The notes beneath the pieces are model-generated. The model saw only the letters and a program-made list of their open reading frames with translations. It was not told where the DNA came from and ran no database searches. Positions 2,398-38,333 of a stretch of 64,000 nt of DNA are shown piece by piece. A program made the position numbers and the translations under genes. Position 1 is the stretch's first letter; the number at the start of each line of letters is the position of its first letter. Source of the stretch: Gemmobacter sp. (GTDB taxonomy: Bacteria > Pseudomonadota > Alphaproteobacteria > Rhodobacterales > Rhodobacteraceae); NCBI GenBank assembly GCA_041675885.1, contig JBAYSY010000005.1, positions 7,652-71,651 on the forward strand, read 5' to 3'.

Positions 2398-2419
2398 GGG
2401 AAGGGAAGGGAAGGGAAGG
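2398..2419. repeat. Pentanucleotide microsatellite (GGGAA)x4 plus GG
   Basis: Direct reading gives gggaagggaagggaagggaagg. It lies about 95 bp upstream of the VWA gene ATG. Confidence 0.9.
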
Positions 2420-2514
2420 CGACATTGAAGCCGCTGGCAACAGCGACAAGCCTGGTCGGCCTACACCCCGGCCAGAACCTGATCAACGGTCTGCATTGTA
2501 AGGGGGACCAGAAG

Positions 2515-7000: not shown

Positions 7001-7686
7001 CGCACCAGCCTTGTGGAACGGGTTTCGTCCCGGCGGCCCGCGGTGTCCCAGGCGCGCAGGATATAGTCGTAATCGCCATCGTCGCGCGCGTCGCGGGCGG
7101 CGGGCATGGTCCATTCCGCCGTGCCGTTGGGGGCGATCGGCACCAGTGCCACGGTCTGGCCGCGCCGGTCGCGGATCACCACCTCGGCCCGGTCGATCCA
7201 GGCCGGATAGTTCGAGGTCGCGCGGAAGGTCACCTTTTCGCCCGCGACAAAGCTCTGGCGCAGGTCGGCGGTGGCGACCGCAAGCCGTGGCCGCGCCCCC
7301 AGCCCGTCGTAGCTCAGTTGCAGGCCCATGGCCTCCAGCAGCCGGTCGATATCGCGGATCCGGTCCGGCCGGGCGGGGGCGCCCGCGATGGTGCGGCGCG
7401 GCCCCTCGGCGCCTTCGGCCCCGTCGATCGAGATCGAAAAGCCCAGATCGCCCAGATCGGCGGTCACCGGCGCAGCGGCGATGTTGGGCGGTGCCGGGCG
7501 GGCGACCACGGTGCCCTCGTTGGCGTGGCGGCAGTTCTCGGGCAGGCGGCCGTCCACCAGAACGCAGCCGTCCGCCTGCGCCCCGGCGGGCTGCCCCGCC
7601 CCCAGCGCCAGCGCCGCGGCGCCCGCCATCAGCACCATCCGCATCCCGCGGGCCTGCATCGAGCCGGACATACCAAGCGCCCCCAT
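4075..7686 (-). CDS. Very large (about 1,200 aa) outer-membrane beta-barrel protein with an N-terminal soluble region; uncharacterised family
   Basis: Signal-like N-terminus MRMVLMAGAAALALGAGQPAGAQA. Long runs of alternating amphipathic beta-strand sequence. The C-terminal ...GAFLNITTQF ends in Phe, the classic OMP signature. The start overlaps the stop of the upstream giant (GTGATG). Confidence 0.7.
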   Translation of the reverse strand: MGALGMSGSMQARGMRMVLMAGAAALALGAGQPAGAQADGCVLVDGRLPENCRHANEGTVVARPAPPNIAAAPVTADLGDLGFSISIDGAEGAEGPRRTIAGAPARPDRIRDIDRLLEAMGLQLSYDGLGARPRLAVATADLRQSFVAGEKVTFRATSNYPAWIDRAEVVIRDRRGQTVALVPIAPNGTAEWTMPAARDARDDGDYDYILRAWDTAGRRDETRSTRLVRSATRLPEAERPGPVIAAAEGEDMTARRGIPVRGGAVTVTGHARAAGAVTVMGERAPVDPSGSFVIQRILPPGVHGVRIGVDGQETERPVEIARSEWFRTGIADLTIGRDNVLGETWKLGRIAGFAQGTLANGVRVTASMDTREEELRDMFRNFGRKHPDQTLRQLEPRDIFNTYGDDSQMTELAPTSGKFYLRVERDGSHLTWGDFKPAGDAAALVRSDRALYGLSGEYRSLAVTGQGEPRVRITGFAANADSLMQRDVFSATGGSAYFLSRQDLLADTETIMVEVRDTTTGAILSARRLSEGVDYRIDHIQGVVILNAPLSSHASSGGLVTSNPLGDQEVRLVAQYEYIPTTGDIDGHTIGLRAEGWANDHLRFGVAGLRETTGIADNTLLGADILLRQGETRELLVEYARSEGPGFGSSFSDNAGMEILPGNPSFGLPGQHADAWSLRGRTDLAMLGLDGRVEGFYTRKDGGFSSPSDEIRVDQTAWGLDGEVALTARTALTFGGRHFSDADGRKDRRVRLGFAHALTPVWTVEGEVQRDERSALAAPGPRADFGARTDAAVRLTWSPDEDLAIWAFGQATVTRDATRQANNRVGFGARALLTDRIDMTGEVSTGNLGWAARAELGWQRDEASRYTLGYELDPQRRFDSADFAGRDRGRVVLGASSRVNDRWNYTAENTYSAFGTRPTLTSGYGVTYTPDARWRFDGGLQFGRTVLQDDTTMERRGLSFGVRYTDADIVAAGLRGEWRRESSDNPARDLDRNTWLVSGFYEQKTSADWRFVSAIDAVVSNSDQSSFRDGRYVEARVGYAWRPESNDRINGLVSYTFLYDMPGADQVNIDGHINGPRQRSHILNAAISYQLNPQWTLGAKYGYRWRELSDRASGSASTRSEAHLGILRVDYHVVHNWDLMAEVRALRYPRAETTELGAVTGLYRLMGNNLRIGAGYAWGQVDDDMRRVRLPRTGAFLNITTQF

Positions 7687-10600
7687 CACCGAACCCCCCG
7701 CTCGATCACCGTTTCCACATTCAGCTGATAGCGCCCGTTCGCGGGCCAGAGGCGGCGCAGCTCGCGCTCCACCAGCCGGAGGTGGCGCCGGGCCTCGTCC
7801 ACGGGCTCGGCCCCCTGCCGCCAGGTGATGCGCAGCATGGCGGGCGTGTCGCGCAGTTCGCTGACCATCCGCCGCAGCCCCTCGGCCAGTTCCGGGCGCA
7901 TCCGCCCTTCGGCGAAGGCGTTGGCGGCAAGGTCGATCCGCACCAGCCGCGACAGGGTGGCGCCGAAGTCGAGCCGCGTCACCATCCCCTGCGTGACCCG
8001 CACCACGCGCGGGTTTTCCGTCGTCAGCCGGAAGCCCGCGGGCAGCGTGCGTTCATCGAGCCGCAGCATGAAGTTGCCGCCAATGTTGCGCGGCATCGCC
8101 GCACAGGGCACGCTGAAGCGGCCATGCTCGTCGGTCAGGATGGCGATGCCGTTCGGCGTGACCAGCCGGACGTTCGGCAGGCCCTTCTCGCTACCGCTCC
8201 GGGTCATGTGGCCGTCCTGGTTGCGGTCGTCGAACACCCGGCCAAGCACGGTCGAGCACTGGAACACCCCGTCGGCCTCGACCCGCACGATGGCGGTGGC
8301 CTCGGGGCTGACCGGCGCGCCGGTCTGGCGCGAGTAGAGCCGCGCGCGGTTGGTATGCGCGCCCGGCTGCACCGCCGAAGTCACCAGCGTCTCCAGCGTG
8401 ACCTCGACCGAGGTGCCGGGGGCGACGGAAACCTCGTCGAACGCCAGATTGCGGCTGTTGCCGGTGGGTTCGGTCGCCACACCACCGATCCGCGCGGTGC
8501 CGGAGCGGTAGACGAAGCCCTGCGGCAGCACATCCACCAGCCGCGCCGTCAGCGGCAACCCGCCCGCGGCATTGGTGACGGTGATGGTCCATGGCACCAC
8601 GTCGCCGACCACGGCGCGGCTGACGCCCGCGATTTTCTCAAGCGCGATGCCGCCGGTGCTGACCGGGGTCGAGACCGATGAGAAGTTGCTGTCCACCACC
8701 ACCTCGGAGCCCGCCCTGCCCTGCGCGATCGCTTCCTGCGAGATCGTGCCGGTGGCGACATCGCCCGCCGTCACGATATGCGAGGCGCCGGTGCAGACCA
8801 GCGTGGCCGTCTCGCCCACCGCCAGCGTGACCGGCTGGCAGGAAAGCCCGGGCAACGGCAGGCTCAGGCGGCTTCCGTCGATGTTCACCTCGGTCAGCGG
8901 CAGGGTGCCGGTGTTCTCGACGGTGAAGCGGAACACCACCTCGTCGCCCGGCCCGGTCACGCCGTCGCCGTCATGGTCGATGATCCGGTCGATGCCGATG
9001 GTCAGCGCCAGTTCCGGATGGCCGATATCCACCACGGTGATGTCGTGATTGCCGGACCCGGTGCCCGAAACCGCCTCGGCCGTCGCGGGGGTGCCGTCGC
9101 CGGTCGTGTAATGGCCCTGCGCCAGCGCCTGGTTCTCGACCCGGGTGCGGGCGATGTCCTCGGCGGTGATCGCATAGCTGGCGGTGAAGCTGTCGCTGTC
9201 CGCCGCGCCCGGCGCAAGCGACGGGATCGGCCCGCCGCTCATCACCAGCCCCGGCAGGTCGTCGATGACGGTCACATCGGTCAGCGTCACGTTGCCGGTG
9301 TTGGTCACCGTGAAGGCATAGGTGATGATGTCGCCCGGCTCCGGCGGGATCTGCACGCCGGAATCGTCGGCGGTCTTGACCAGTGCGATTCCCGGCGTCT
9401 GGTCGATCCCGACCACGGTCGGCCCGTCCACGCCCTGATCGGTGAAGGAATCGGCGGTGACGGTTCCCGGATTGTCCGGATCACCATGGCTGGCCGAGAC
9501 CAGCGCGCGATTCTCGACCTGCCCGGCGTCCAGATCCTCCTGCGTCAGGCTGTAGGTGGCACTGAAGCTGTCGGTGTCGGTCTCGCCCGGCGCAAGTTCC
9601 GGGATCGGGGCACCCGAAAGCTGGATCCCCGGCAGGGCGTCGGTCAGTTCGACGTTGAACAGCGTCACCGTGCCGCTGTTGGTGATGGCGAATGCATAGC
9701 GGATTTCGTCACCCACCTGCGGCGGGCCTTGCAGCCCGGTGGCATCGGCCGCCTTGACCAGTTCGATGGTCGCCGCCTGCGGCAGATCAACCCGCGTCGG
9801 GTCGTCGTCGTCCACCGTCGCGCCCGAGATATCGGTTACTTCGACCGGAACCCCGCCCGCATCGGTATATTGTCCGGTGACCGTGGCGGTATTCTCGACA
9901 TGCCCGCGGTCGATATCCGCCTGGGTAATGACGTAGCTCGCGGTGAAGGTGTCGCTGTCGGTCTCGCCGGGGTCGAGCACGTCGAGCGGCCCGCCCGCAA
10001 GCACGATGCCCGGCAGGTCGTCGGCAATGACCAGATCGGTCAGCGGCACGTTGCCGGTATTGGTGACCGCAAAGGCGTAGCTGATGGTGTCGCCCACCGC
10101 GAGATCGCCCGCAGGCACCGAGGTGCTGGCGGTCTTGACCAGCGCCACGGCCGGGCTGGACGCCACCGGCACCTCGACCCCGGATTCGTCCCCGACCTGT
10201 CGCGGCTCACCCGTTGCCAGGTCGGTGCCCCAGGTGCCGGTGACACTGGCAAGGTTCTCGACCCGCCCGGCGGTGATGTCGTCCTGGGTGATCGCATAGC
10301 GCGCGGTGAAGGTGTCGTCGTCCGTCACCCCCGGTGCAAGCGCCGGGATCGGCCCGCCGTCCAGCACCAGCCCCGGCAGATCGTCGGCAAGGGTCACATC
10401 CGTCAGCGTCACGTTGCCGGTGTTGGTCACGGCGAAGCTGTAGATGATTTCCTGCCCGATCACCGCCGGATCGGTCAGCGCCAAGGCATTGGCGTCCTTC
10501 ACCAGTTCGATGCCCGGAAGCTGGGTCAGCGGCGTCACGGTCGGGTCGTCGTCCTCCTCGGTCTCGCCCGACAGGTCGGTGACCGGCACCGGCGATCCGC

Positions 10601-13600
10601 CGCCATCGTCGAACACGGCGTCGCCGGTGGCCTGGTTCACCACCTCGCCCGCATCAAGATCATCCTGCGTGACCGGATAGGTCGCGGTGAAATCCGCGCT
10701 CTCGCCGGGCAGGAGCGTGCCTGCGTCAAAGCTCGACTCCGACAGGCCCGGCAGCGGATCGGTCACGGTCACATCGGTCAGCGTCACGTTGCCGGTGTTC
10801 CGCACCGTGAAGCTGTAGGTGATCAGGCCGCCGACCTCGGACGGGCTGCCCTCGGCCGACTTGACCACGGCAAGCGCCGGGGTCCGGCCGAGACCGACCA
10901 CGGTCTCGTCGTCGTTCGGCACGTCGGGGTCGTTGCCCGACAGTTCCTCGACCGGGGTCAAGCCGCCCTCGCCGTCGTCCCACGTGCTGCGGGCGGTGGC
11001 CTGGTTCACCACCTGACCACGGTTGATATCATCCTGCGTGACCACATATTCCACCACGAACGTCTCGTCCGCACCGGGGGCGAGTTCGGCCACGGCGAAA
11101 CTGCCCGGCGTGATGCCGTCCAGCGGGTCGGTAATCGCGATATCGTAGAGGGTCACGTTGCCGGTATTGGTCAGCACCAGCGTATAGGTGATGCTGTCGC
11201 CCGCCTCGGCATCGTCGATCTGCGCCGGGTCGGCGGTCTTGACCAGTTGCATCGCCGGCACCCGGGCAAGCGGCACCACGGTCGGCCCCTCGTCGCCGGT
11301 CTCGGTCTCGGACTCATCCGATACCTCCTGCGGCTCGCCGTCCTCGTCGGTATAGCCGCCGGTGACCGTGGCGCGGTTCTCGACATGGCCGCGTTCGATA
11401 TCGTCCTGCGTCAGCGTGTAGGCGGCGGTGAAGCTGGTGTCGTCCAGCGCGCCGGGCGCCAGTTCGTCGATACTGCCCGAGATCGCCACACCGGGGATGA
11501 AATCGTCGGTCAGAACCAGATCGGTCAGGGTGACGTTGCCGGTATTCCGCACCTCGAACCTGTAGCGCAGCACCTCGCCCGCGACCGGGGGCGACGACAG
11601 GTCCGTCGCCGTGGTGTCGAGCGCCTTGACCAGCGAGATCCCGGGCGCGATCACCAGATCGGTCACCTCGGTATCCTCGGCCCGCACCTCCTGCGGATCA
11701 TCCTCGCTGTCGCGCCATATGGCCACGACCTCGGCGGTGTTCGTCACCCCGCCCTCGTTGATTTCCGCCTGGGTCAGCGCATGGGTGCCGGCGAAGTCCC
11801 CGCCGCGTTCCATGTCCGGCAGCAGGTCGAAAGCCTGCGTCTCGTCCGTGGTGAACACCAGCATCCCGTCGATCATGGTGAAGCTTTCCAGCACCACGTT
11901 GCCGGTGTTGCGGATGGTGAAGTGATAGACCACCTCTTCGCCAGCCAGCGGCGGGTTCGACAGGCCGGTGATACCGGCGGTCTTGACCAGTTCCACGCCG
12001 GGCACCTGCGGCACCGGCAGCACGGTATCGCCGGGCGTGGTCGGATCGCCGGGCTCCGGGCTCGACTCCACCGGGGTCAGCGGGCCCGCGGGATCGCCGG
12101 GGGTGCCGCCGAAATCGCCGGTCAGACCGGCGCGGTTGCGCACCTCACCCGCCTGGATGTCGTCCTGCGTGAGTTCGTAACTCGCGGTCAGCACCTCGAT
12201 CCCGCCGGGGGCAAGCTCGGCAATCGAGAAGCTGGCCGGGTCGATCCCCGGCAGCGGGTCCGCGACCTCCAGATCGCGCAGCGTGACGTTGCCGGTGTTG
12301 GTGACGGTGAAGGTGAACTCGATCACCTCGCCCGGCAGTGGCATTTCCGGCAGGCTGTCGGCCACGGTCTTGACCAGCGTGACCGCCGGATTCCGGCCAA
12401 GGCCGACCACGGTCGGGTCGTCGTTCGGCACATCGGGGTCGTTGCCCGACGGCACGTCGAGCGGGTCGCCGGTCGGCGTATCGGCGCGGGCGGTGGCCTG
12501 GTTCACCACCTCGCCGTTATCGATATCCTCCTGCGTGACGGTATAGGTCGCGACCCACGTTTCGGCCGCACCGGGGGCAAGCGTGGCGAGGGTGTAACCG
12601 GCCGGGTCGAGGGCCAGCTTCGGGTCGCTCAGCACCAGGTCGGTCAGGGTGACGTTGCCGGTGTTCTCGACCACGAAGGTATAGGTGATGGTGTCGCCCA
12701 CCTCGGCCGGGTCGATCATGTCCTGATCGGCGGTCTTGAGCAGGGTCATCCCCGGCACCCGGTCGAGCGGCACCGTCACGTCGGAGGTGGCGGGATCGGC
12801 GGTCAGCACCTCGGTCGGGTCGTCCGGGTTGGTCCAGTCGCCGGTAACCTCGGCGGTGTTGTCCCGCTGGCCGTTGTCGATATCCTCCTGCGTGAGGGTA
12901 TAGCTGCCGGTAAAGCTGGTATTGTCGGTCTGGTCCACCTCAAGCGGGGTATCGCGGCTGCCGGTGATCGTCACACCGGGCAGCAGGTCGGTCAGCGCAA
13001 GGTTCGACAACGGCACGTTGCCGGTATTGGTGATCGCGAACGTATAGGTGATCTCGTCCCCGGCCTGCGGCGGCGTCTGCAATCCGGTGGTGACCGCCTC
13101 CTTGACCAGATCGAGCGCCGGATTGCGCAGAAGCGGCGCCACGGTCGGCTCGTCATTGTCGAAATCGCTGCCGGAATCGTCCGTCACCGTGGGCGTGGTG
13201 GTCGAGCCGGTGTCGGCGGTGACCGTGGCATGGTTCTCCACTTCGCCCGCTTCGATATCGGCCTGCGTCAGCAGGTAATGCCCGGTCAGGCTGTATTCGG
13301 TGGTCCCGCCGCTACCCGGCGCATCGAGCGTGAGGCCCGAGATATCCTCGTCGAAGACGAAACCCGGCAGGATGTCGGTCAGCACGAGGTTGGTCAGCGG
13401 CAGGTTGCCGGTGTTGCGGATGGTGAAGCCGTAGTCGATCCGGTCGCCCGGCATCAGCGGGCCCGAGGTATCGGTCGTCAGCGTCTTGACCAGCGCGATT
13501 GCGGGGTGATGCGGCAGCGGTGTCACCGTGTCGCCCGGCGTCGGGTCGGAAGGATCGGGGCCCGAGGGAACCGGATCGCTCGGCGTGCCCGAGGGGCTTT

Positions 13601-16484
13601 CGCCCTCGATCGCCGCCTGGTTGACGACCTCTCCCGCCACGATGTCGGCGACGGTCAGGACATAGGTGATCCACAGGCCGTCCGTATCCACGCTACCGAC
13701 CGGCAGGCTGACGATGCCGCCATGCACCACCGCGCCGGGCAGCGGATCGGTCAGCACGATGTTTTCCAGCGTGACGTTGCCGATGTTCTCGACCCGGATG
13801 TTCCAGCGGATCTCGTCGCCGGGGAAGGCCGGTTCCGGCAGGCTCGCGGGGTCCAGCTCCTTGTGCAGCAGGAAGTCGGGGTTCTGGTGCAGCGGGGTTT
13901 CCACCGATTGTTCGTCCGAGGAAATCGGCGTGTTGCCCGGACCGAAGACGGCTTCGGCATGGGCGAGGTTCTCGACCCGGCCCGCGTCGATATCGTCCTG
14001 CGTCACCGGATAGGTGGCCTGGAAGGTGTGGTCAGCGCCGGGTTCCAGGGTGCCGATGGTAAAGGCTCCCGCCGGCGTCATCGTGCCGCCCAGCACATCC
14101 TCCACCACCACTTCGCGCAGCGTGGTGTTGCCGGTGTTGGTGACGGTGAACCCGTAGGTGATGGTCTCGTCCACCTCGGTGGCCGGGTCGGAGATCGTGT
14201 TCGCGATCTCGGTCTTGACCAGCTCCAGCTCCGGCTCGGACAGGGTGTCGATCCGCACCGTGTCGGTATCGCTGACCGTATCGGCGGGGTCGCCGCCCCA
14301 GAGGCCGGTCGTCGTCGCGGTGTTTTCGACAAGGCCGCTGTCGATATCGTCCTGCGTCAGCGTGTAGGCGGCGTTCAGGGTGATCGAGTCGCCGGGCGCC
14401 AGTTCCGGGTGCGGCAGTGACGGATTCCCGGCATCCCATACAAAGCCGGAGAGGCTGTCCATCGGATCGTCGAGCGTCACATCGACCAGCACCGAATTGC
14501 CGGTATTGGTGATCTCGAAGGTGTAGGTGACCACATCCCCCGGCGCGGCCGCGCCGCCGCCCGCGGGCGTCAGCTCGTAGGTCTTGGCCAGATCGATCCC
14601 GTCGGTGAAGGCGGGCGTGACCGTGGCGGAGTCGCTGTCATCCACGTCCTCGCCGGAATACCGGCCCTCTGCCTCGACCGTGGCGGTGTTGTCATGGGTC
14701 AGCGACGCCGCGCGCGGAACTTCGGGCCAGACGCGCAACTGAAGCCTCACCGTCGTGTCGGCACCGGCCGCAAGCGTGCCACCGCTGATGATCCGGCCCG
14801 GCGCGAAGGGGTTGGCCTCGAACCCCGGGTCGAGGGTCAGCCCGCCCGCATTCACCGGGACGATACTGAAACTGCCGGGCGCATCGCTGGTGTCGTAGGT
14901 GCCGAAGGACGCCTCCAGCGGGTCGTCGATCACGATATTCGTCACCGGCTCCAGGCTCGGGTTGGTCACCAGCAGTTCGTAGGTCACCATATAGGAGCCG
15001 TTGGTCTGCACCACATGTTCGACGCTTTTGTCCAGCCCGATGCGCGGCTCGTGGTGTTTCGAGAAGTCGAGGTTGCCGATCTCGTCGGGCCCGGTCACGG
15101 CGATCGAGCCGATGGTGTGCTCATCAACCGCAGTGCCGTAGCCGCCGGTGGGCAGCGCCGCGGCAGGGGTCAGGAAGTCCTCGCTCGGCGAGGCATAGCT
15201 GACCTGATACGCGCCCTCGGGCAGCAGCGGGAAGCTGTAGTTGCCGGTGCCGTCCGTGGTGGTGGTCATCGTGATCGGCGTGCCGTCCTCGGCCGTTCCG
15301 GTCAGTTGCACGGTCACGCCCGCGACGCCGGTATCCTCGGCATCCCAGGCATCATTACGGTCGAAGTCGCGGAAAATCCCGCCCGACAGCGTGGCGGTTT
15401 GCACGGTGACCGTATCGGTGCTGGTCATGGTGCCGGGGTCGTCCGGGAAAGATTCCGTGGTGACACTCGCGGTGTTCGACACCACCTCGTTATCGGCATC
15501 AACCGAGACCACCTTGACCGGGATCGACACGCTCACCACGTCGCCCGGCGCCATCTCACCGATGAAGCACGACAGTTCGCGGCCGGAAATATCGCAACTG
15601 CCGATGTCGCCGGTCGTCACCGGGGCGCCGGTCACCTCGACATTCGCGGGCAGGATATCGGTCAGTTCCACCCCTTCGGCGGTGCCCATCTGGTTCTCGA
15701 CCGTAATCTCCCAGTTGAAACCCTCGCGCAGCATCAGCGGTGTCGGCGCGTCGTTGGTCTTGCTCACGACCAGATCGACCCGCTCACGCACGGTGGTGGA
15801 TTCGGTCACGCTGTTGTTGCCGGCGAACTCGTGGCCCGCTGTGGTCTCGCGCGACTTGACGACGGCGCTGTTGATCCAGGTGCCGCGCTCAAGCGCCTTC
15901 ATCTCGACCCCGATCACCCGCGTCTCGTTCGCGGGCATGTAGCCGAGCGTGCAGGTCAGCGTGCCGCCCGCCGTGTCCGCCACGGTGCCTGCGGTCTCAC
16001 AGACCATCCCCGCCCTGTCGGTGATCGAAACAAAGCTCAGCCCATCGGTCGGGAAGGTATCGAGCAGTTCGACCTCAAAGGCGGCCGAGGGGCCGCGGTT
16101 GGTCACGGTGATGCGATAGGCGGTGTTCTGGCCGCTTTCCACCGGGTCGGTGTCGTCGGTCTTGTTGATGACGAGATCGAGCACCGGCTCCCGCACGACA
16201 AGCAGCAGGTCGTCGGTATTGTCGGCCTGATCCTCGGCGCGTTCCTCGGTCGTGGTCGAGACCGCGGCGGTGTTGAGCAGCTCCTGCCCGGCCTGAAGGT
16301 CGGTCGGGATCACCCGGATGGTGACCGTCTGCTGCGAGCCGTTGGCGATGCGGCCGAGGTTGCATTCCACCGTATCGCCGGAGGCGGTGATGGCACCCGG
16401 GGCAGGCATGGCGGAACAACTGCCGCTGCTGGACGTGGCGGAGACAAAGCGCACGCCTGCGGGCAGGGTGTCGATCACCGTCAC
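7686..16484 (-). CDS. Giant DUF11/TIGR01451 conserved-repeat surface protein, C-terminal 2,932+ codons. Homology continues upstream of the nominal GTG to 16637 (see findings)
   Basis: About 19 tandem modules of roughly 115-120 aa carry the T(V/I)TNTGNVTLTD...LPG...L.PG....F.A.Y..TQ.DID.G.V.N.A motif. The C-terminus has an SdrD-B/Cna-B-like segment (GRVFDDRNQDGHMTRSGSEKGLPNVRLVTPNG...TDEHGRFSV). Confidence 0.9.
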   Translation of the reverse strand: MTVIDTLPAGVRFVSATSSSGSCSAMPAPGAITASGDTVECNLGRIANGSQQTVTIRVIPTDLQAGQELLNTAAVSTTTEERAEDQADNTDDLLLVVREPVLDLVINKTDDTDPVESGQNTAYRITVTNRGPSAAFEVELLDTFPTDGLSFVSITDRAGMVCETAGTVADTAGGTLTCTLGYMPANETRVIGVEMKALERGTWINSAVVKSRETTAGHEFAGNNSVTESTTVRERVDLVVSKTNDAPTPLMLREGFNWEITVENQMGTAEGVELTDILPANVEVTGAPVTTGDIGSCDISGRELSCFIGEMAPGDVVSVSIPVKVVSVDADNEVVSNTASVTTESFPDDPGTMTSTDTVTVQTATLSGGIFRDFDRNDAWDAEDTGVAGVTVQLTGTAEDGTPITMTTTTDGTGNYSFPLLPEGAYQVSYASPSEDFLTPAAALPTGGYGTAVDEHTIGSIAVTGPDEIGNLDFSKHHEPRIGLDKSVEHVVQTNGSYMVTYELLVTNPSLEPVTNIVIDDPLEASFGTYDTSDAPGSFSIVPVNAGGLTLDPGFEANPFAPGRIISGGTLAAGADTTVRLQLRVWPEVPRAASLTHDNTATVEAEGRYSGEDVDDSDSATVTPAFTDGIDLAKTYELTPAGGGAAAPGDVVTYTFEITNTGNSVLVDVTLDDPMDSLSGFVWDAGNPSLPHPELAPGDSITLNAAYTLTQDDIDSGLVENTATTTGLWGGDPADTVSDTDTVRIDTLSEPELELVKTEIANTISDPATEVDETITYGFTVTNTGNTTLREVVVEDVLGGTMTPAGAFTIGTLEPGADHTFQATYPVTQDDIDAGRVENLAHAEAVFGPGNTPISSDEQSVETPLHQNPDFLLHKELDPASLPEPAFPGDEIRWNIRVENIGNVTLENIVLTDPLPGAVVHGGIVSLPVGSVDTDGLWITYVLTVADIVAGEVVNQAAIEGESPSGTPSDPVPSGPDPSDPTPGDTVTPLPHHPAIALVKTLTTDTSGPLMPGDRIDYGFTIRNTGNLPLTNLVLTDILPGFVFDEDISGLTLDAPGSGGTTEYSLTGHYLLTQADIEAGEVENHATVTADTGSTTTPTVTDDSGSDFDNDEPTVAPLLRNPALDLVKEAVTTGLQTPPQAGDEITYTFAITNTGNVPLSNLALTDLLPGVTITGSRDTPLEVDQTDNTSFTGSYTLTQEDIDNGQRDNTAEVTGDWTNPDDPTEVLTADPATSDVTVPLDRVPGMTLLKTADQDMIDPAEVGDTITYTFVVENTGNVTLTDLVLSDPKLALDPAGYTLATLAPGAAETWVATYTVTQEDIDNGEVVNQATARADTPTGDPLDVPSGNDPDVPNDDPTVVGLGRNPAVTLVKTVADSLPEMPLPGEVIEFTFTVTNTGNVTLRDLEVADPLPGIDPASFSIAELAPGGIEVLTASYELTQDDIQAGEVRNRAGLTGDFGGTPGDPAGPLTPVESSPEPGDPTTPGDTVLPVPQVPGVELVKTAGITGLSNPPLAGEEVVYHFTIRNTGNVVLESFTMIDGMLVFTTDETQAFDLLPDMERGGDFAGTHALTQAEINEGGVTNTAEVVAIWRDSEDDPQEVRAEDTEVTDLVIAPGISLVKALDTTATDLSSPPVAGEVLRYRFEVRNTGNVTLTDLVLTDDFIPGVAISGSIDELAPGALDDTSFTAAYTLTQDDIERGHVENRATVTGGYTDEDGEPQEVSDESETETGDEGPTVVPLARVPAMQLVKTADPAQIDDAEAGDSITYTLVLTNTGNVTLYDIAITDPLDGITPGSFAVAELAPGADETFVVEYVVTQDDINRGQVVNQATARSTWDDGEGGLTPVEELSGNDPDVPNDDETVVGLGRTPALAVVKSAEGSPSEVGGLITYSFTVRNTGNVTLTDVTVTDPLPGLSESSFDAGTLLPGESADFTATYPVTQDDLDAGEVVNQATGDAVFDDGGGSPVPVTDLSGETEEDDDPTVTPLTQLPGIELVKDANALALTDPAVIGQEIIYSFAVTNTGNVTLTDVTLADDLPGLVLDGGPIPALAPGVTDDDTFTARYAITQDDITAGRVENLASVTGTWGTDLATGEPRQVGDESGVEVPVASSPAVALVKTASTSVPAGDLAVGDTISYAFAVTNTGNVPLTDLVIADDLPGIVLAGGPLDVLDPGETDSDTFTASYVITQADIDRGHVENTATVTGQYTDAGGVPVEVTDISGATVDDDDPTRVDLPQAATIELVKAADATGLQGPPQVGDEIRYAFAITNSGTVTLFNVELTDALPGIQLSGAPIPELAPGETDTDSFSATYSLTQEDLDAGQVENRALVSASHGDPDNPGTVTADSFTDQGVDGPTVVGIDQTPGIALVKTADDSGVQIPPEPGDIITYAFTVTNTGNVTLTDVTVIDDLPGLVMSGGPIPSLAPGAADSDSFTASYAITAEDIARTRVENQALAQGHYTTGDGTPATAEAVSGTGSGNHDITVVDIGHPELALTIGIDRIIDHDGDGVTGPGDEVVFRFTVENTGTLPLTEVNIDGSRLSLPLPGLSCQPVTLAVGETATLVCTGASHIVTAGDVATGTISQEAIAQGRAGSEVVVDSNFSSVSTPVSTGGIALEKIAGVSRAVVGDVVPWTITVTNAAGGLPLTARLVDVLPQGFVYRSGTARIGGVATEPTGNSRNLAFDEVSVAPGTSVEVTLETLVTSAVQPGAHTNRARLYSRQTGAPVSPEATAIVRVEADGVFQCSTVLGRVFDDRNQDGHMTRSGSEKGLPNVRLVTPNGIAILTDEHGRFSVPCAAMPRNIGGNFMLRLDERTLPAGFRLTTENPRVVRVTQGMVTRLDFGATLSRLVRIDLAANAFAEGRMRPELAEGLRRMVSELRDTPAMLRITWRQGAEPVDEARRHLRLVERELRRLWPANGRYQLNVETVIERGVR

Positions 16485-16637
16485 GTCGTCGGCGCCGCTG
16501 CGGCCGTCGCGCCTTACCCCGGCGGCAAGCGTGTAGATCAGTTCCTGCCCGGCGACGGGTTCGCTGTGCGGGCTGGTCTTGGTGATGAAGACGTCGGTGA
16601 CCGGCTCGACCGCGTAGGGGACCGAAGCGGCATTGTT

Positions 16638-18668
16638 CTACACGTCCGGATCGGGGGTCGTCGTCGAGAAGGCTTCGGCGGTGTTGGTCCGGTCGGCCGC
16701 ATCGCCACCCGCCAGAACCTCGACGGTGATCTCGGGGCAATCCGTGGTGCAGACCGGCAGGTTCGCAGCATCGCAGCGCAGGTTGGCGGCGAAATCACCA
16801 TCGGGGTTCACGGTGCAGACGAAGCCAGCGGGGGCAGAGACACTGACGGCAGCGGGGTCCACGATGGGCGCAAGCCGGTCGGTCAGCACCACGTTCAACG
16901 CCTCGGCAGGCCCCACGTTCTGCAAGCCGATGGTGAAGATCACGGGCTCGCCCGATTCGAAGCTGGCGCCATTGACCGATTTGCTTACGCTGACATCGGC
17001 CCAGTTTTCGCCCGCCGCGCTGGTCACGTTGGTCGTGGTGGTGTTGTTGCCAAGGTCTTCGTCGTCGATGTTGTAGGCGGGCGAGCCGACCGTCATCCCG
17101 TTCGAGATCGCGCCTTCTTCCGTCACCAGCGCGGTCAGCGTGATGTTGCCGGTGGCACCGCCGGGCGCAAGCGGGCTTGCTTCCGTGTAAAGCGACGGGG
17201 CCTCGCAGACGACATCCATCGGGCCGACCAGCGGGGACGCCTCGCTCGCGATCGGGCAGGTCCAGCCCGAGGGTGCGTTGATGCTGGTCACCGACAGCCC
17301 GGCGGGCAGGTGGTCGGTCATGGTCATCGGGCCGTAAAAACCCGCCGTGCCCGCGTTGCTTGCCCGGATGGTGAAATCGTAGCTGTTGCCCACCGTCACC
17401 AGCCCGCGCGCCGGGCCGGACTTGTTCGCGACCAGATCGACCGTGGGTTCGACGATCGACACCGGCGTGTCGCTGGCGGTGTTGTTGTTCGGGTTGACGT
17501 CGTTCGCGGCCGTAATCGCCGCCTCGTTCCGGACACCCGCGCCGGTGGCCACGGCCTCGGCCACGATCTGGATCGGCGTGGCGTAGCCGCCGGGCGAGCC
17601 GCCTTCGGGATAGGTGCAGGTGACGGTGCCGCCGATGGCCTCGCAGCTCCAGCCGCCCGGCTCGGTCACGCTGACGAACTCGTAGTTCGCGGGCAGCGTG
17701 TCGGTGATGGTGGCCGCCCCCGGCGGGCTGCCCACGTAACCCGGGGTCAGCGTGAAGGTGACCTGATCGCCCCGCAGGATCTGCGCGCCCGAGGGGCTGC
17801 GGCTTTTCGACAGCACATAGTCGGTGCCGGGCAGAATCTCGATGTCCTGCACCGCGCTGTCGTTGCTGTTGTCCGGGTCTTCGGGGTTTGAGCCGCTCAG
17901 CGCCGCGGCGATGACCACATTCGACGCATCCGCCGTGGTGACCTGCGTCGAGAAGTCGAGCGTGACGGAATCGCCCACCGGGATCTCGTCGGTGACCGTG
18001 CAGGTGACATTGCCGCCCGCGACCTCGCAGATACCGGGCAGCGTGACGAAAGAGGGCGAAAGGCCGGTCGGCAGCGGGAAGGTCAGCACCGTGCCCTGCG
18101 ACGGATAAGGGCCGTTGTTGGTGACGGTGGCGCTGAAGCTGGCGAAATCGCCGGACTGGACCGGGCTGACCCCGGCCAGCGTGAGTTCGAGATCGGTGCC
18201 CAGATAGACGGTGGTGGATTCCGAGTTCGACGGCCCGTCGTCCCCCATCTGCCCGGCGACGGTGAAGGTCTGGCTGGCCCCCATCGGCCGCACCAGGATC
18301 GCACCCTCGATCCCCTGGGTCGCCGCCAGCGCCGGCACGTCGCAGGTGACGGTCAGCGGCCCGTCGAGCGGCGGCTCCCCCGCCGGATCGGGCAGACAGT
18401 TCAGAAGACCGCCGGTGAATCCCTCGTATCGCGAGGCGCCGGGGATGGTGAAACTTACCGTCGTGGCCGGGGCGCCGGAACTGCTGCTCGCATTGCTGAT
18501 GCGCGTGGTATAAGGCACGAGGCCCCCGGCCGCGATCGGGTCGTAATCGGCGCCGCCAATGCCGGTGTCGCGCAGATCGAAGGTCCAGCTCTGGGCATGA
18601 ACGGGTGCCGCGGCGAACATGGCAAGGCAGAACAACGAGACTTTAAGCCCCCAAGCCGACTGGCGCAT
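16638..18668 (-). CDS. N-terminal segment (676 aa) of the same DUF11-repeat surface protein, with a Sec signal peptide; ends at an in-frame TAG
   Basis: An ATG at 18668 gives MRQSAWGLKVSLFCLAMFAAAPVHAQS, with GAAGGG upstream. About 5-6 DUF11-type modules follow. It is in the same reading frame as 7686..16484. Confidence 0.85.
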   Translation of the reverse strand: MRQSAWGLKVSLFCLAMFAAAPVHAQSWTFDLRDTGIGGADYDPIAAGGLVPYTTRISNASSSSGAPATTVSFTIPGASRYEGFTGGLLNCLPDPAGEPPLDGPLTVTCDVPALAATQGIEGAILVRPMGASQTFTVAGQMGDDGPSNSESTTVYLGTDLELTLAGVSPVQSGDFASFSATVTNNGPYPSQGTVLTFPLPTGLSPSFVTLPGICEVAGGNVTCTVTDEIPVGDSVTLDFSTQVTTADASNVVIAAALSGSNPEDPDNSNDSAVQDIEILPGTDYVLSKSRSPSGAQILRGDQVTFTLTPGYVGSPPGAATITDTLPANYEFVSVTEPGGWSCEAIGGTVTCTYPEGGSPGGYATPIQIVAEAVATGAGVRNEAAITAANDVNPNNNTASDTPVSIVEPTVDLVANKSGPARGLVTVGNSYDFTIRASNAGTAGFYGPMTMTDHLPAGLSVTSINAPSGWTCPIASEASPLVGPMDVVCEAPSLYTEASPLAPGGATGNITLTALVTEEGAISNGMTVGSPAYNIDDEDLGNNTTTTNVTSAAGENWADVSVSKSVNGASFESGEPVIFTIGLQNVGPAEALNVVLTDRLAPIVDPAAVSVSAPAGFVCTVNPDGDFAANLRCDAANLPVCTTDCPEITVEVLAGGDAADRTNTAEAFSTTTPDPDV

Positions 18669-18906
18669 CACAATACCCTTCAGTCCCCCGACGACCTTTT
18701 CCGGCCGCCAAATTCTTGTTTCCCGCGTCGGCGCCCGCAGGCACCGGACTACCGGCAATCAGATCGGTCAAATGACTCGCACCGCACCCGAATGCAACCT
18801 ATGGCTGCGCTTCGGCAGCCTGATTCATGTCGTGGATAGCGAAATGCCCTCCCGATGCAATGCCCTGCGGCCCTGTTGCGCAGAAACAGTCGGGGTGTGA
18901 TTCTGA

Positions 18907-20355
<1,449 letters not shown>

Positions 20356-20356
20356 C

Positions 20357-21370
20357 ATGGCCCGCATGACGATGATCGAGGCAATCCGCGACGCGCTGGA
20401 CGTGGCGATGGGGGCCGATGCCCGCGTCGTGGTGTTCGGCGAGGACGTGGGCTATTTCGGCGGGGTGTTCCGCTGCACCGCCGGGCTTCAGGCGAAATAC
20501 GGCACCACCCGCTGCTTCGACACGCCGATCAACGAATCCGGCATCGTCGGCGCCGGGATCGGCATGGCCGCCTACGGGCTGCGCCCGGTGGTCGAGATCC
20601 AGTTCGCCGATTACGTCTATCCGGCCTATGACCAGATCGTGTCCGAAGCGGCCCGGCTGCGTTACCGTTCGGCCGGGGGGTTCACCTGCCCGATGGTGAT
20701 CCGCATGCCCACGGGCGGCGGCATCTTCGGCGGCCAGACCCACAGCCAGTCGCCCGAGGCGCTGTTCACCCATGTGACCGGCCTCAAGGTCGTGGTACCC
20801 TCGAACCCGCGGGACGCCAAGGGCCTGCTGCTTGCCGCCATCGAAGACCCGGATCCGGTGATTTTCCTTGAGCCCAAGCGGCTTTACAACGGCCCGTTCG
20901 ACGGCCACCCCGAACGCCCGGCGACAGCGTGGAAATCGCATGATCTGGGCGAGGTGCCCGAGGGGCATTTCACCGTGCCGCTGGGCCGGGCCGCGATACG
21001 GCGCGAGGGCCGCGCCGTCACCGTGCTGGCCTGGGGCACGATGGTGCATGTCGCGCTGGCCGCCGCCGCCGAGACCGGGATCGACGCCGAGGTGATCGAC
21101 CTGCGCACGCTGCTGCCGCTCGATCTCGACGCGGTGGTGGCCTCGGTCCGCAAGACCGGCCGTTGCCTCGTGCTGCACGAGGCGACGCTGACCTCGGGCT
21201 TCGGCGCGGAACTCACGGCGCTGGTGCAGGCGGAATGTTTCTACCACCTGGAAGTGCCGATCCGGCGGGTGGCGGGCTGGGACACGCCCTATCCCCATGT
21301 TCATGAGTGGAGCTATTTCCCCGGTCCCGCCCGCATCGGCGAGGCGCTGCGCGAATTGATGGAGGTCTGA
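20357..21370 (+). CDS. bkdA2: Branched-chain 2-oxoacid dehydrogenase E1 beta subunit
   Basis: MARMTMIEAIRDALDVAM..., typical of E1 beta. The start is 1 nt after the E1 alpha stop. Confidence 0.9.
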   Translation: MARMTMIEAIRDALDVAMGADARVVVFGEDVGYFGGVFRCTAGLQAKYGTTRCFDTPINESGIVGAGIGMAAYGLRPVVEIQFADYVYPAYDQIVSEAARLRYRSAGGFTCPMVIRMPTGGGIFGGQTHSQSPEALFTHVTGLKVVVPSNPRDAKGLLLAAIEDPDPVIFLEPKRLYNGPFDGHPERPATAWKSHDLGEVPEGHFTVPLGRAAIRREGRAVTVLAWGTMVHVALAAAAETGIDAEVIDLRTLLPLDLDAVVASVRKTGRCLVLHEATLTSGFGAELTALVQAECFYHLEVPIRRVAGWDTPYPHVHEWSYFPGPARIGEALRELMEV

Positions 21371-21371
21371 A

Positions 21372-22625
21372 ATGGGTGTCCATTCGATCCGCATGCCCGA
21401 TATCGGCGAAGGCATCGCCGAGGCCGAGATCGCCGAATGGCTGGTCTCACCCGGCCAGATGGTCCGCGAGGACGAGCCGCTGGCCGCGGTGATGACCGAC
21501 AAGGCCACGGTCGAAATCCCCTCGCCGGTGGCGGGCAAGGTGCTGTGGCTTGCCGGAGAGCCGGGCGACATCCTGGCGGTGGGGGCCGAACTGATCCGGC
21601 TGGAGGTCGAGGGCGACGGCAACCTCGCCCCCGGCGCGGCAGAGGAGACAGAGCCGGAAGCGGAGAAAGAGCCGGAACCGCAGCCGCAGCCGCAACCACA
21701 GGCCCGCCCCCCCGCCGCGCCGCCGCCGCCGCGCCCGGCACCCGCCGCCGCCCTGCGGCCCGAGGGCGAACGGCCGGTCGCGCCCCCCTCGGTGCGCAGG
21801 CGCGCACGCGAGGCCGGGGTGGACCTGCGGCAGGTTCGCGGCTCCGGCCCCTTCGGGCGGATCACCCAGGACGACCTGTCGGCCTTCATCGCCTCGGGCG
21901 GGGTCGCCGCCGCGCCGGGGCCGCGGCCCGACACCTCGGTCGAGGAGATCCGCGTCATCGGGCTGCGGCGGAAAATCTCGGAAAACATGGCCCGCGCCGC
22001 CACGATCCCGCATATCACCATCGTGGAGGAGGTGGACGCAAGCGCGGTGGAAGACCTGCGGGCCCGGATGAATGCCGACAGCCGGGGCGAAAAGCTGACA
22101 CCGCTTGCCTTCATTGCCCGCGCGCTGGTCCGCGCCCTGCGCGAACAGCCGATGCTCAACGCCCATCACCTGCCTGATGACGGGCTGGTCCGCCGCTTCG
22201 GCGCGGTGCACCTGGGCATCGCGACCCAGACGCCCGGCGGGCTGATGGTGCCGGTGCTGCGCCATGCCGAGGCGCTGACCCTGCGCGAGACCGCGGCCGA
22301 GATCGCCAGGCTGGCGCAGGCCGCCCGCGACGGCGGCGCCCGGCGCGAGGAACTGACCGGCTCGACCGTCACCATCACCTCGCTCGGGCCGCTTGGCGCC
22401 ATTGCCACCACGCCGATCCTGAACGCGCCCGAGGTGGCCATCGTCGGCGTCAACCGGATGGCGGTGCGGCCCCACTGGAACGGCTCTGCGTTCGAGCCCC
22501 GGCGGATGATGAACCTGTCGTGCAGCTTCGACCACCGGGTGATCGACGGCTGGGACGCGGCGGTCTTCGTGCAGCGGCTCAGGCAACTGCTGGAAACCCC
22601 GGCGCTGATTTTCATGGAGGGCTGA
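21372..22625 (+). CDS. bkdB: Lipoamide acyltransferase E2 component
   Basis: Lipoyl domain (IRMPDIGEGIAEAEI...VMTDKATVEIPS), a Pro/Ala linker, a subunit-binding domain, and a catalytic domain with DHRVIDG. Confidence 0.9.
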   Translation: MGVHSIRMPDIGEGIAEAEIAEWLVSPGQMVREDEPLAAVMTDKATVEIPSPVAGKVLWLAGEPGDILAVGAELIRLEVEGDGNLAPGAAEETEPEAEKEPEPQPQPQPQARPPAAPPPPRPAPAAALRPEGERPVAPPSVRRRAREAGVDLRQVRGSGPFGRITQDDLSAFIASGGVAAAPGPRPDTSVEEIRVIGLRRKISENMARAATIPHITIVEEVDASAVEDLRARMNADSRGEKLTPLAFIARALVRALREQPMLNAHHLPDDGLVRRFGAVHLGIATQTPGGLMVPVLRHAEALTLRETAAEIARLAQAARDGGARREELTGSTVTITSLGPLGAIATTPILNAPEVAIVGVNRMAVRPHWNGSAFEPRRMMNLSCSFDHRVIDGWDAAVFVQRLRQLLETPALIFMEG

Positions 22626-26780: not shown

Positions 26781-28106
26781 TCAGCGTTCGCGGAAGGCGC
26801 GCGCGAACTGGTCGGTGACCGGGCGGACAAGGTATTCAAGCGCGGTGCGGTCGTCGGTGGTGACGAAGACCTCGACCGGCATCCCCGGCAGCAAGGCCAG
26901 ATCGCCGAGCATGTCGCGCCCCGCATCGGTCAGGTCGAGGGTGGCGATATAATACGCCTCGGCCGCGCCGGACTCGCGCGTTGTCGCGGCCGAGACGTGC
27001 CGCACCGTGCCCGGTATCTCGGGCGTGGTGCGGTGGTTGAAGGCGGAGAACCGCAGCCGCGCCTCCTGCCCGACCCGCACCTGGTCGATACTGGCGGGCG
27101 GGATGCGCGCCTCGATCCGCAGCGCGGCATCGACGGGCACGATGGAGACCACGACTTCGGCCGCCGAGATCACGCCGCCGATCGTATGAACCATGATTTC
27201 ATTGACCACCCCGTCGCTCGGGGTGCGCAGATCGGTGCGCGACAGCCGGTCTTCAAGCACGTGGCCACGTTCGACCAGTTCACCCAGCCGGGCCTCGACA
27301 TGGCTCAGCTCGCGCTGGGCCTCGGTGCGGGCAAAGTCGTCGATCGCCATGATCTGGATGTTGATTTCGTTGATCCGGGTGCGGGCGCGGGCGATGGCGG
27401 CGTCGATCTCGCCGCGTTCGCCGGCAAGCCGCGCCACGTCGCGGCCGATGGCATAGACCCGCGCCGTCTCGATCAGGTTCTGTTCGGCCAGTTGCCGGAT
27501 ACGCGCCTGTTCGGCCCCCACCAGAACGATTTCCTCATGCTTCGAGTCGCGCTGCGCCTTGAGCCCGGCGATCTCGTCCTCGATCTGCTCGATCCCGAGG
27601 CGGAGCTGTTCCTTCTGCGCCTCGCGGTGCAGCCGGTTGCCGCGGAACAGGTTGCGCTCACCCTCCATGGTCACGGCGATCTCGGCGCCTGCCTGAAGCA
27701 GCACGGCGGGGAAGGCCAGGGCCTCGTGGCCGTCGCGCTCGGCGATCAGCCGCGCCCGCCGGGCGCCGAGTTCAAGGATCTGCGTGCGCACGATCGTCAG
27801 TTCCGCCCGCGTCGCCGCATCGTCGAGCCGCAGCAGGATCTGCCCCTCCCGCACCGTATCGCCTTCGCGCACGGCGATTTCCGAGACGATGCCGCCGTCG
27901 CGGTGCTGCACGGTCTTGAGGTTGCCGTCGACCACCACCGCGCCATTGGCGATCACCGCGCCCGAAAGCCGCGCGGTCGCGGCCCAGCCGCCCACCCCGG
28001 CAATCAGCGCAAGCCCGGCCACCAGCCCGAACAGCACCCGCCCGCCGAAGCGGTAGGGGCCGGGATCATCGCCCCGGGGGGCCGCGGGAAGAGGGGTCGT
28101 CTTCAT
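26781..28106 (-). CDS. HlyD-family type I secretion membrane fusion protein
   Basis: N-terminal TM, then LSGAVIANGAVVVDGNLKTVQHRDGGIVSEIAVREGD, a coiled-coil middle region, and a C-terminal beta-barrel domain. ATGA overlap with the upstream gene. Confidence 0.9.
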   Translation of the reverse strand: MKTTPLPAAPRGDDPGPYRFGGRVLFGLVAGLALIAGVGGWAATARLSGAVIANGAVVVDGNLKTVQHRDGGIVSEIAVREGDTVREGQILLRLDDAATRAELTIVRTQILELGARRARLIAERDGHEALAFPAVLLQAGAEIAVTMEGERNLFRGNRLHREAQKEQLRLGIEQIEDEIAGLKAQRDSKHEEIVLVGAEQARIRQLAEQNLIETARVYAIGRDVARLAGERGEIDAAIARARTRINEINIQIMAIDDFARTEAQRELSHVEARLGELVERGHVLEDRLSRTDLRTPSDGVVNEIMVHTIGGVISAAEVVVSIVPVDAALRIEARIPPASIDQVRVGQEARLRFSAFNHRTTPEIPGTVRHVSAATTRESGAAEAYYIATLDLTDAGRDMLGDLALLPGMPVEVFVTTDDRTALEYLVRPVTDQFARAFRER

Positions 28107-31986: not shown

Positions 31987-32044
31987 CGTTCCGCACCGGT
32001 CCGGGGGCGGGGCGAAACACCCCGCCCCCGCTGTTGTCACGGGT

Positions 32045-38242: not shown

Positions 38243-38333
38243 GGTATCCCCCAGATGTCCGAAAGGCCGCACAGGACGGCGTGTCAATCCGACCTCAGGG
38301 TGCCGTGGACCGGCCCGGCGCGATATCTCCGGT

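Follow-up and report, generated by a model that had tools for sequence, protein, structure and literature searches.

Two long ORFs lie next to each other on the minus strand of a 64-kb stretch of Gemmobacter DNA (the window, hereafter), and are separated by 153 nt of apparently intergenic sequence. They may be viewed as two genes, or as one gene split by a stop codon; the stop, in turn, may be a mutation, an error of the consensus sequence, or a codon which is leaky or suppressed. The initial annotation favoured a single gene, and listed these three options. The data presented here point to a real and recent nonsense allele, which arose by a C>A change in the gene for a giant fibrillar adhesin and can be classed as a truncation variant or pseudogene; we assign to this reading a probability of roughly 0.87. 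The features of the locus are listed in Table 1.

Table 1. Coordinates of the features of the interrupted adhesin locus within the window.
Feature	Position	Strand	Remarks
Outer-membrane beta-barrel-like protein (OMP), 1,203 aa	4075..7686	-	weak OMP_b-brl Pfam match; ends with Phe followed by TAG
Interrupted adhesin gene, complete	7686..18668	-	3,660 codons, the internal TAG being counted; CLIPPER/CLIPPER_2 repeats
Nominal downstream ORF	7686..16484	-	GTG start, 2,932 aa
CLIPPER domain directly after the TAG	16209..16595	-	Pfam DUF11, E=2.6e-19, 70.1 bits, profile positions 1-111 of 114; straddles the nominal GTG start
153-nt "intergenic gap"	16485..16637	-	51 codons; last residues of one CLIPPER domain, then beta-strands 1 and 2 in its successor
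Lys20 codon after the TAG (VFITKT)	16578..16580	-	conserved putative isopeptide lysine; 5' of the nominal GTG start
CLIPPER domain containing the TAG	16620..16997	-	Pfam; the stop removes approximately the last 8 profile positions
Premature TAG, codon 677	16638..16640	-	TCG (Ser) in intact conspecific alleles
Upstream fragment	16641..18668	-	676 codons, 68 kDa; NCBI hypothetical protein MFA7432565.1 (exact protein match); four DUF11 stretches by Pfam
Signal-peptide-like N-terminus, 25 aa	18594..18668	-	MRQSAWGLKVSLFCLAMFAAAPVHA; read by eye
Shine-Dalgarno-like GAAGGG	18676..18681	-	7 nt 5' of the ATG at 18668; sequence read directly

As read directly, the minus strand around 16640..16638 is GAC GTG TAG AAC AAT GCC. 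Translation from the ATG at 18668 to the TGA at 7686 covers 3,660 codons, and the TAG at codon 677 is the sole internal stop; the two remaining minus-strand frames feature 133 and 36 stops in the same interval. The claim that ORFs 16638..18758(-) and 7686..16484(-) share one frame of ~3,660 codons, interrupted by a single TAG, is thus borne out. Were codon 677 read as serine, the predicted mass of the protein would be 378.6 kDa. The frequency of G or C in third codon position (GC3) is 0.88 in the gap, and 0.86 and 0.88 in the coding sequences flanking it. In a genome with a GC content of 68%, a long open frame is by itself little proof of coding, and the case therefore rests on the continuity of protein domains across the gap and on the existence of intact orthologues.

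The CLIPPER domain hosting the TAG matches positions 1-104 of the 114-position Pfam profile, with a score of 49 bits, when no read-through is assumed, and positions 1-112, with a score of 60.6 bits, when a serine and the 13 residues following it are added. The initial annotation had placed the TAG at a complete DUF11 module boundary. The stop is indeed near a domain end, but does not mark it exactly, as the upstream CLIPPER domain would extend for another ~8 profile positions past it. The next CLIPPER domain starts 15 residues past the TAG, and the nominal GTG start corresponds to its profile position 36. Both the GC3 value and the Pfam domain continuing through the 153 nt confirm that the gap encodes repeat sequence, as had been proposed.

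An AlphaFold2 model of the domain following the TAG (mean pLDDT 96, pTM 0.87) features strands at residues 16-21 and 33-41, both encoded in the gap. The top PDB match retrieved by Foldseek with the predicted domain is 9IFR, a solved CLIPPER domain (E=1.2e-8; TM 0.74, target-normalised), and the modelled fold is a CnaA-like Ig beta-sandwich resembling 9IFR. No match was found by phmmer when the junction region was compared with PDB sequences, and a profile built from six repeats was needed to reach 9IFR at the sequence level (E=4.3e-6). CLIPPER domains feature a triad made by a Lys in the first strand, a catalytic Asp, and an Asn in a late strand (PMC12617251). Counting residues from the TAG, the triad corresponds to K20, D56 and N122, and conservation at these positions is 90% or higher in a set of 25 homologues; the K and D residues are invariant across the six N-terminal repeats. 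The K residue aligns with the lysine of the DVVK motif, the D residue with the aspartate of the NDTL motif of 9IFR. The CLIPPER triad is thus present by alignment, whereas the isopeptide bond is putative.

The upstream ORF had been listed as starting at a TTG at 18758. The ATG at 18668 is a likelier start, being preceded by GAAGGG and followed by a signal-peptide-like N-terminus, and the earlier assignment should be corrected. On inspection, this N-terminus, which is followed by QSW, features basic residues (R2 and K9), then a hydrophobic core and a VHA|Q motif, and resembles a Sec signal peptide; export of the protein is suggested by this resemblance.

The downstream piece has no comparable features. 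Three gene callers have placed its start at as many different sites, an ATC at 16586 (PGAP), the GTG at 16484, and an ATG at 16409 (IMG), none of which precedes a signal-peptide-like sequence. No Shine-Dalgarno-like motif was found before any in-frame ATG, GTG or TTG within 330 nt after the TAG, and promoter-like sites were not found in the 16200-19000 interval; an internal promoter or a re-initiation site was rejected on these grounds. ORF 7686..16484(-) is not an independent gene, and its GTG start, located in the middle of a domain, is an internal Val codon. The initial annotation had argued that this ORF has no real start or signal peptide of its own, and had anticipated that automated annotation would report two unrelated-looking proteins. 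Both views proved correct, as the database entries are MFA7432565.1, a "hypothetical" protein of 676 aa, and MFA7432564.1, an "SdrD B-like" protein of 2,966 aa. Both entries derive from one and the same gene, each covering a fragment of it, and a disrupted gene should be indicated in their annotation; MFA7432564.1 begins at an artificial, non-canonical start within a domain. The main value of the present observations lies in annotation.

Taken as one gene, the locus would encode a giant (~379 kDa) Sec-exported fibrillar adhesin. The protein would consist of an N-terminal signal peptide, ~27 tandem Ig-like domains measuring 120-148 aa (CLIPPER/DUF11, CLIPPER_2/DUF7507 and SdrD_B-like), and a C-terminal region with no family match. 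Pfam DUF11 (PF01345; cut-off 24.6 bits) scores 148.2 bits in the upstream part, in which four stretches are matched, and 404.9 bits in the downstream part, in which ten are matched; 16 DUF7507/CLIPPER_2 stretches were also identified, and SdrD_B was matched as well. The repeats match both PF01345 and PF24346 well over threshold. Motifs corresponding to the lysine strand are spaced by 118-148 aa, or multiples thereof, and the repeats make up a long stalk of tandem Ig-like domains. When the C-terminal 200-400 aa were compared with Pfam and NCBIfam, only a DUF11-type repeat was matched, and the last 200 aa match no family.

The ATG of the OMP gene overlaps the TGA of the adhesin gene (TGATG), so that the OMP gene is a probable co-transcribed, translationally coupled partner. 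A full-length homologue of the OMP, 41% identical, is found at the same position in the distant locus L001 (CP138918.1), and an OMP gene occupies this position also in the loci L003 and L004 described below. The conserved downstream OMP may supply the adhesin with anchoring or export.

The window matches a Gemmobacter sp. metagenome-assembled genome (locus tags WCZ72_). Two assemblies of the same species, L003 (GCA_964645425.1) and L004 (ERZ27247346), carry a TCG (Ser) codon in place of the TAG, and feature unbroken ORFs of 3,644 and 3,643 aa, respectively. The two proteins belong to the same 90% cluster, and their genes reside in the same neighbourhood, preceded by 2-oxoacid dehydrogenase E1 genes and followed by the gene for the 1,203-aa OMP. 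Over 16.9 kb the loci are ~99.5-99.7% identical to the window (54 and 79 differences in 16,935 aligned positions). The alleles are told apart by base 16639, which on the coding strand is A in the window and C in the intact alleles (T and G, respectively, on the plus strand), and the occurrence of TCG in intact conspecific alleles indicates that the TAG arose via one C>A change. Within the gap, the window and the intact alleles differ at one site, 16593, and the change is synonymous; the TAG/TCG base is located just outside the gap. The initial annotation had suggested comparing the codon in orthologues of related strains; the serine codon found in both conspecific assemblies, and the single-base nature of the difference, support a nonsense mutation among the options listed. 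A conserved stop, accompanied by an independent downstream start and a signal peptide, was looked for in the orthologues and not found. In each of five more remote homologues a sense codon occupies the TAG column, the residues being D, T, G, S and G. Distant loci also look disrupted, as four frameshifts were observed in L001 and one in L002 (SRR28201033); these frameshifts may be assembly errors, and one is located in a run of nine C.

The intact alleles were found only by exact look-up. A homology search carried out with a 661-aa query spanning the junction retrieved only distant homologues, measuring at most 1,156 aa and at most 49% identical to the query; the near-identical cluster escaped it, possibly owing to the absence of long proteins from the index. 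No relative of the junction protein was found in GTDB species-representative genomes. An exact 32-mer junction pattern, with N at the variable base, gave 0 matches in genome contigs and 0 in JGI metagenome contigs, and the 676-aa product, when looked up exactly among gene positions, gave no record.

Downstream of the TAG, synonymous and non-synonymous differences are in the ratio of 25:6 in the comparison with L003, and of 26:12 in the comparison with L004. Neither further stops nor frameshifts are found in the 2,983 codons which follow the TAG. Since differences are mostly synonymous and the frame is otherwise intact, most of the divergence must have accumulated while purifying selection was acting, which makes the break a recent one.

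Should the true genome carry TCG, the TAG would be an error of sequencing or assembly. The window derives from a metagenome-assembled genome, and both alleles are found under neighbouring ENA accessions (ERZ27247346 and ERZ27247376), which makes mixed populations plausible. However, three assemblies of different source share this TAG, namely the 85.8-kb NCBI/JGI contig, a k141 contig in ENA ERZ27247376, and a Logan contig from SRR6484323. The only other difference between the latter two and the window is at base 14858. Recurrence in two further assemblies makes a random base-call error unlikely; the three assemblies may come from the same or related libraries, and all that can be read from the difference at 14858 is that the consensus sequences are distinct. 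In addition, dozens of other positions set the TAG haplotype apart from the intact alleles, and the lesion itself, located outside homopolymers and repeats, consists of a substitution rather than an indel. A consensus error seems, on the whole, extremely improbable. Phase variation by slipped-strand mispairing was also considered, and rejected, the lesion being a substitution in the non-repetitive sequence GACGTGT[C/A]GAACAAT.

The stop may also be real and yet not terminate translation, the full-length adhesin being still made by UAG read-through, by a suppressor such as a tRNA-Ser with a CUA anticodon, or following reassignment of TAG. All the codons downstream of the TAG are open, and mostly synonymous changes separate them from the intact alleles, as expected if they were translated; a recent mutation, however, predicts an open frame and a synonymous bias equally well. 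In the GC3-supported ORFs of the window the stops are TGA (28), TAG (4, one being the premature stop itself) and TAA (2), and TAG terminates other genes of the window at conserved C-termini, as in the OMP gene, at a conserved C-terminal Phe. Sense codons are found in the TAG column in homologues, and TCG in conspecific strains. No tRNA gene is located within the 64-kb window, and no other interrupted gene was seen in it. The sequence flanking the TAG is essentially identical to that of the intact allele, and hence no co-evolved read-through signal accompanies the stop. Programmed read-through or codon reassignment is not indicated, as the stop is not conserved in orthologues and TAG appears to be a working terminator in the window; production of the full-length adhesin from this allele must be regarded as very unlikely.

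In the preferred interpretation, a nonsense allele of recent origin, a single C>A transversion in the lineage of the window turned the serine codon 677 (TCG) into TAG. Translation would stop after 676 residues, to yield a 65-kDa exported N-terminal fragment, the last domain of which would miss its final strand. The 2,983 codons past the stop, which lack a start, a ribosome-binding site and a signal peptide proper to them, should go untranslated. Polarity would probably lower the expression of the coupled downstream OMP gene.

The same mutation may have been kept as an adaptive truncation, rather than as a neutral or deleterious pseudogene. Possible gains would be the release from biofilms, the escape from phages or predators, the saving of the cost of a 379-kDa protein, or a role for the secreted 65-kDa fragment. 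At least two or three assemblies show the TAG as their consensus, and both alleles occur under neighbouring ENA accessions; the apparent disruption of the distant loci L001 and L002 hints at recurrent loss, and natural truncations of a similar kind have been described for inlA (PMC5131979). A single occurrence on one haplotype, however, fits drift or hitch-hiking equally well, and the frameshifts in the distant loci may stem from assembly, so that selection for the truncation, and any of the gains mentioned, are judged unlikely. More doubtful still is the notion of a maintained strain variant, in which the 379-kDa anchored adhesin is replaced by a secreted 65-kDa fragment, or is made in full by means of a UAG-reading tRNA-Ser suppressor. 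If this were true, the disruptions of the adhesin-OMP module in L001 and L002 would denote recurrent selection for on/off giant adhesins in environmental alphaproteobacteria. A recent nonsense allele, as favoured here, is an ordinary gene-breaking mutation, and the mechanism is not new. Should the organism be brought into culture, the TAG allele may prove useful as a natural knockout.

The Gemmobacter protein resembles fibrillar adhesins made by CLIPPER (DUF11, PF01345) domains in the long tandem stalk, the Lys/Asp/Asn residues, and the predicted fold matching 9IFR; its signal-peptide-like start, if it acts as a signal peptide, would also fit the architecture described for these adhesins. 9IFR is the CLIPPER domain of Acinetobacter silvestris B9T28_05395, a protein named OmpA-like domain-containing, whereas the C-terminal 200 aa of the Gemmobacter adhesin have no counterpart among known families. 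Unlike described fibrillar adhesins, the Gemmobacter protein features no adhesive tip, and no known sorting or anchor domain, recognised by Pfam or NCBIfam. Natural single-nucleotide nonsense alleles of the inlA gene segregate among strains of Listeria monocytogenes (PMC5131979), and encode N-terminal fragments devoid of the C-terminal part. The locus described here is similarly a strain-level nonsense allele of a surface-protein gene, which would leave an N-terminal fragment; phenotype and ecological distribution have been measured for inlA, whereas the Gemmobacter allele was characterised by sequence analysis. In Staphylococcus aureus Mu50 and N315, the giant Ebh gene is split by a frameshift into two annotated ORFs, ebhA and ebhB (PMC3868527). 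Both ebh and the gene analyzed here encode giant repetitive surface proteins, and each is interrupted by a single mutation in part of the strains, while others retain the unbroken gene. The Gemmobacter locus is thus another case of strain-level presence/absence of a very costly surface adhesin, but differs from ebh, a Gram-positive gene with other repeat types, because the break is a nonsense substitution, and the product an alphaproteobacterial CLIPPER-repeat adhesin.

The minus strand around the stop reads CCG GAC GTG TAG AAC AAT GCC, with TAG at 16640..16638. The initial annotation, according to which one in-frame TAG splits a giant gene, is borne out: the ORFs 16638..18758(-) and 7686..16484(-) of the mechanical ORF list lie in one common frame, and translation from ATG 18668 to TGA 7686 gives 3,660 codons, with codon 677 as the sole internal stop. 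The remaining two frames of the minus strand contain 133 and 36 stops over the adhesin gene. Because chance alone often yields long open frames at 68% GC, as in this genome, the open frame by itself was not counted as evidence. GC3 measures 0.86 before TAG, 0.88 within the 153-nt gap (16485..16637) between the ORFs, and 0.88 after it, and Pfam domains are uninterrupted across both TAG and gap.

The hexanucleotide GAAGGG is found 7 nt before ATG 18668, and the encoded N-terminus, MRQSAWGLKVSLFCLAMFAAAPVHA/QSW, looks by inspection like a Sec signal peptide. The adhesin is a chain of Ig-like modules, sorted by Pfam into DUF11 (4 + 10 stretches), DUF7507 (16 stretches) and SdrD_B-like domains. DUF11 and DUF7507 are currently named CLIPPER and CLIPPER_2. 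Costa et al. (PMC12617251; PDB 9IFR) describe these domains as CnaA-like units of fibrillar-adhesin stalks, with an intramolecular isopeptide bond that involves a first-strand Lys, a catalytic Asp and an Asn. TAG was placed within the domains by Pfam scan of short pieces. The CLIPPER domain preceding it matches profile positions 1-104 (49 bits) if cut at the stop, and 1-112 (60.6 bits) if read through, so that the stop would take away the last strand; TAG, initially placed at a complete DUF11 module boundary, lies near the boundary, not exactly on it. The next CLIPPER domain begins 15 residues past TAG, and the nominal GTG start 16484 falls on its profile position 36. Modelled with AlphaFold2 and 24 homologues, the 152 residues after TAG reach a mean pLDDT of 96; strands predicted at residues 16-21 (VFITKT) and 33-41 after TAG are both gap-encoded, and the best PDB match of the predicted domain is the CLIPPER structure 9IFR (E=1.2e-8). 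Residues K20, D56 and N122 (numbered from TAG) are nearly invariant among homologues, and the K20 codon resides within the gap, upstream of the nominal GTG start. The adhesin can be placed among the CLIPPER fibrillar adhesins, although neither a tip nor an anchor domain was recognised in it.

As anticipated, NCBI lists two separate proteins. The 676-aa product is MFA7432565.1, "hypothetical protein WCZ72_02510 [Gemmobacter sp.]" (exact look-up; MAG, 85.8-kb contig), the downstream piece MFA7432564.1, a 2,966-aa "SdrD B-like domain-containing protein". The longest match in the homologue search measured 1,156 aa; the near-identical cluster of 2,966-3,644 aa was reached by exact look-up instead. 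Uninterrupted proteins in the same 90% cluster are P0074 (3,644 aa, GCA_964645425.1) and P0073 (3,643 aa, ENA ERZ27247346). Both read TTTPDPDV-S-NNAASVPYAV at the codon 677 site, and their genes have the same neighbourhood as in the window, in which divergent 2-oxoacid dehydrogenase E1 genes lie upstream and an OMP gene for 1,203 aa downstream. The near-identical cluster of P0067 and P0068 includes P0070 (WP_372944108.1), a partial 1,413-aa protein on a 4.2-kb contig labelled Mycolicibacterium sp., probably a mis-binned Gemmobacter contig.

Comparison of orthologous codons, proposed initially as a test, supports one gene carrying a nonsense mutation. Codon 677 is TCG in GCA_964645425.1 and ERZ27247346, TAG in the window, ERZ27247376 (64.3-kb contig) and a Logan SRR6484323 contig; in coding-strand terms the change is a C>A transversion, seen as G>T at 16639 of the plus strand. 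Alignment over 16,935 bases shows 54 and 79 differences between the window and the intact alleles, and a single one (14858) that separates it from the other two TAG contigs; TAG therefore belongs to a distinct strain haplotype. An artefactual TAG is disfavoured, and most improbable: TAG is a substitution in non-repetitive sequence, on a haplotype of its own, and is the consensus in three assemblies from different pipelines, the read sets of which are not necessarily independent. The SNP at 14858 is found in the window alone: codon 1271 is CCG (Pro) there, and TCG (Ser) in 4/4 other assemblies, of TAG and TCG alleles alike. The change is non-synonymous, lies downstream of the premature stop, and sets the window consensus apart from the other two TAG contigs.

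Read-through, suppression or reassignment of TAG has no positive evidence and is very unlikely. TAG ends other genes of the window, one of them being the OMP gene, where it falls at the conserved C-terminus; no tRNA gene is found within the 64 kb, and the sequence flanking TAG is the same as in the intact allele. Orthologues have sense codons at this position, and more distant homologues (39-49% identity) feature D, T, G, S and G.

The nonsense mutation itself is recent relative to the between-strain divergence of ~0.3-0.5%. Synonymous to non-synonymous differences after TAG are 25:6 and 26:12 against the GCA_964645425.1 and ERZ27247346 alleles, respectively, and no second stop or frameshift interrupts the 2,983 codons after TAG, which shows that the downstream part has not been drifting for long. 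Three gene callers made three different choices for the start of the downstream piece. MFA7432564.1 begins MTKTSP, its start being an ATC (Ile) codon that precedes the conserved isopeptide Lys by two residues, apparently picked merely to maximise ORF length. No Shine-Dalgarno-like motif precedes in-frame starts within 330 nt after TAG, and no promoter-like site was found in the region 16200-19000. The TAG allele would direct a 68-kDa precursor, matured to a 65-kDa N-terminal fragment in which the last domain is damaged, and the 310-kDa remainder would not be made. That the truncation is adaptive, instead of a neutral loss, is doubtful.

Features of the window and alternative starts of the downstream piece
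Feature	Position	Strand	Remarks
vWA protein	2389-3312	+	307 aa; von Willebrand factor A domain, C-terminal PEP-CTERM sorting motif
OMP gene	4075-7686	-	1,203 aa; signal-peptide-like N-terminus, C-terminal beta-barrel-like domain, terminal Phe
Downstream-piece start, IMG	16409	-	ATG
Downstream-piece start, ENA	16484	-	GTG
Downstream-piece start, PGAP	16586 (codon 16584-16586)	-	ATC, non-canonical
HlyD-family adaptor	26781-28106	-
RTX-repeat protein	28103-30163	-	686 aa
PrtD-type ABC permease/ATPase	30160-32040	-
RTX-repeat giant protein	32045-38371	-	2,108 aa

The adhesin TGA overlaps the ATG of the OMP gene (TGATG). The OMP includes a large uncharacterised region in its N-terminal part, and no family assignment for it was above threshold. 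It also follows the adhesin in the two intact-allele assemblies, and in CP138918.1, a distant genome, an equally long homologue (41% identity, full-length) occupies the same position (18600-22211 of the locus). The OMP may serve the adhesin as a dedicated partner for export or anchoring. The premature stop, 9 kb upstream, would likely lower OMP-gene expression through lost coupling and polarity. The window has a second large locus for secreted proteins, a type I secretion cluster (26781-38371). The PEP-CTERM motif of the 307-aa protein implies an exosortase system somewhere in the genome.

Homologous loci elsewhere look disrupted as well. The homologous adhesin locus of CP138918.1 (10001-18589, 39% identity) is broken by four frame changes, one adjoining nine consecutive C, and is called as five separate ORFs (1136, 571, 453, 164, 540 aa); flanking genes look intact, and the locus is either a real pseudogene or reflects homopolymer/indel errors of the assembly. 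The closest non-conspecific homologue (49% identity; Logan SRR28201033 contig, 6094-12269) is interrupted by a frameshift after ~950 aa. The second ORF overlaps the first by 30 nt and carries the repeats onward, and a LuxR-type regulator (Autoind_bind + GerE) is encoded directly upstream.

The data support an ordinary strain-level nonsense allele, one gene mis-annotated as two proteins, of significance for annotation and of low general interest. A close analogue is the giant ebh of S. aureus, intact in other strains, and annotated as two ORFs, ebhA and ebhB, in Mu50 and N315, although the ebh lesion is a frameshift (PMC3868527). A further resemblance is to Listeria inlA and its premature stop codons (PMC5131979).
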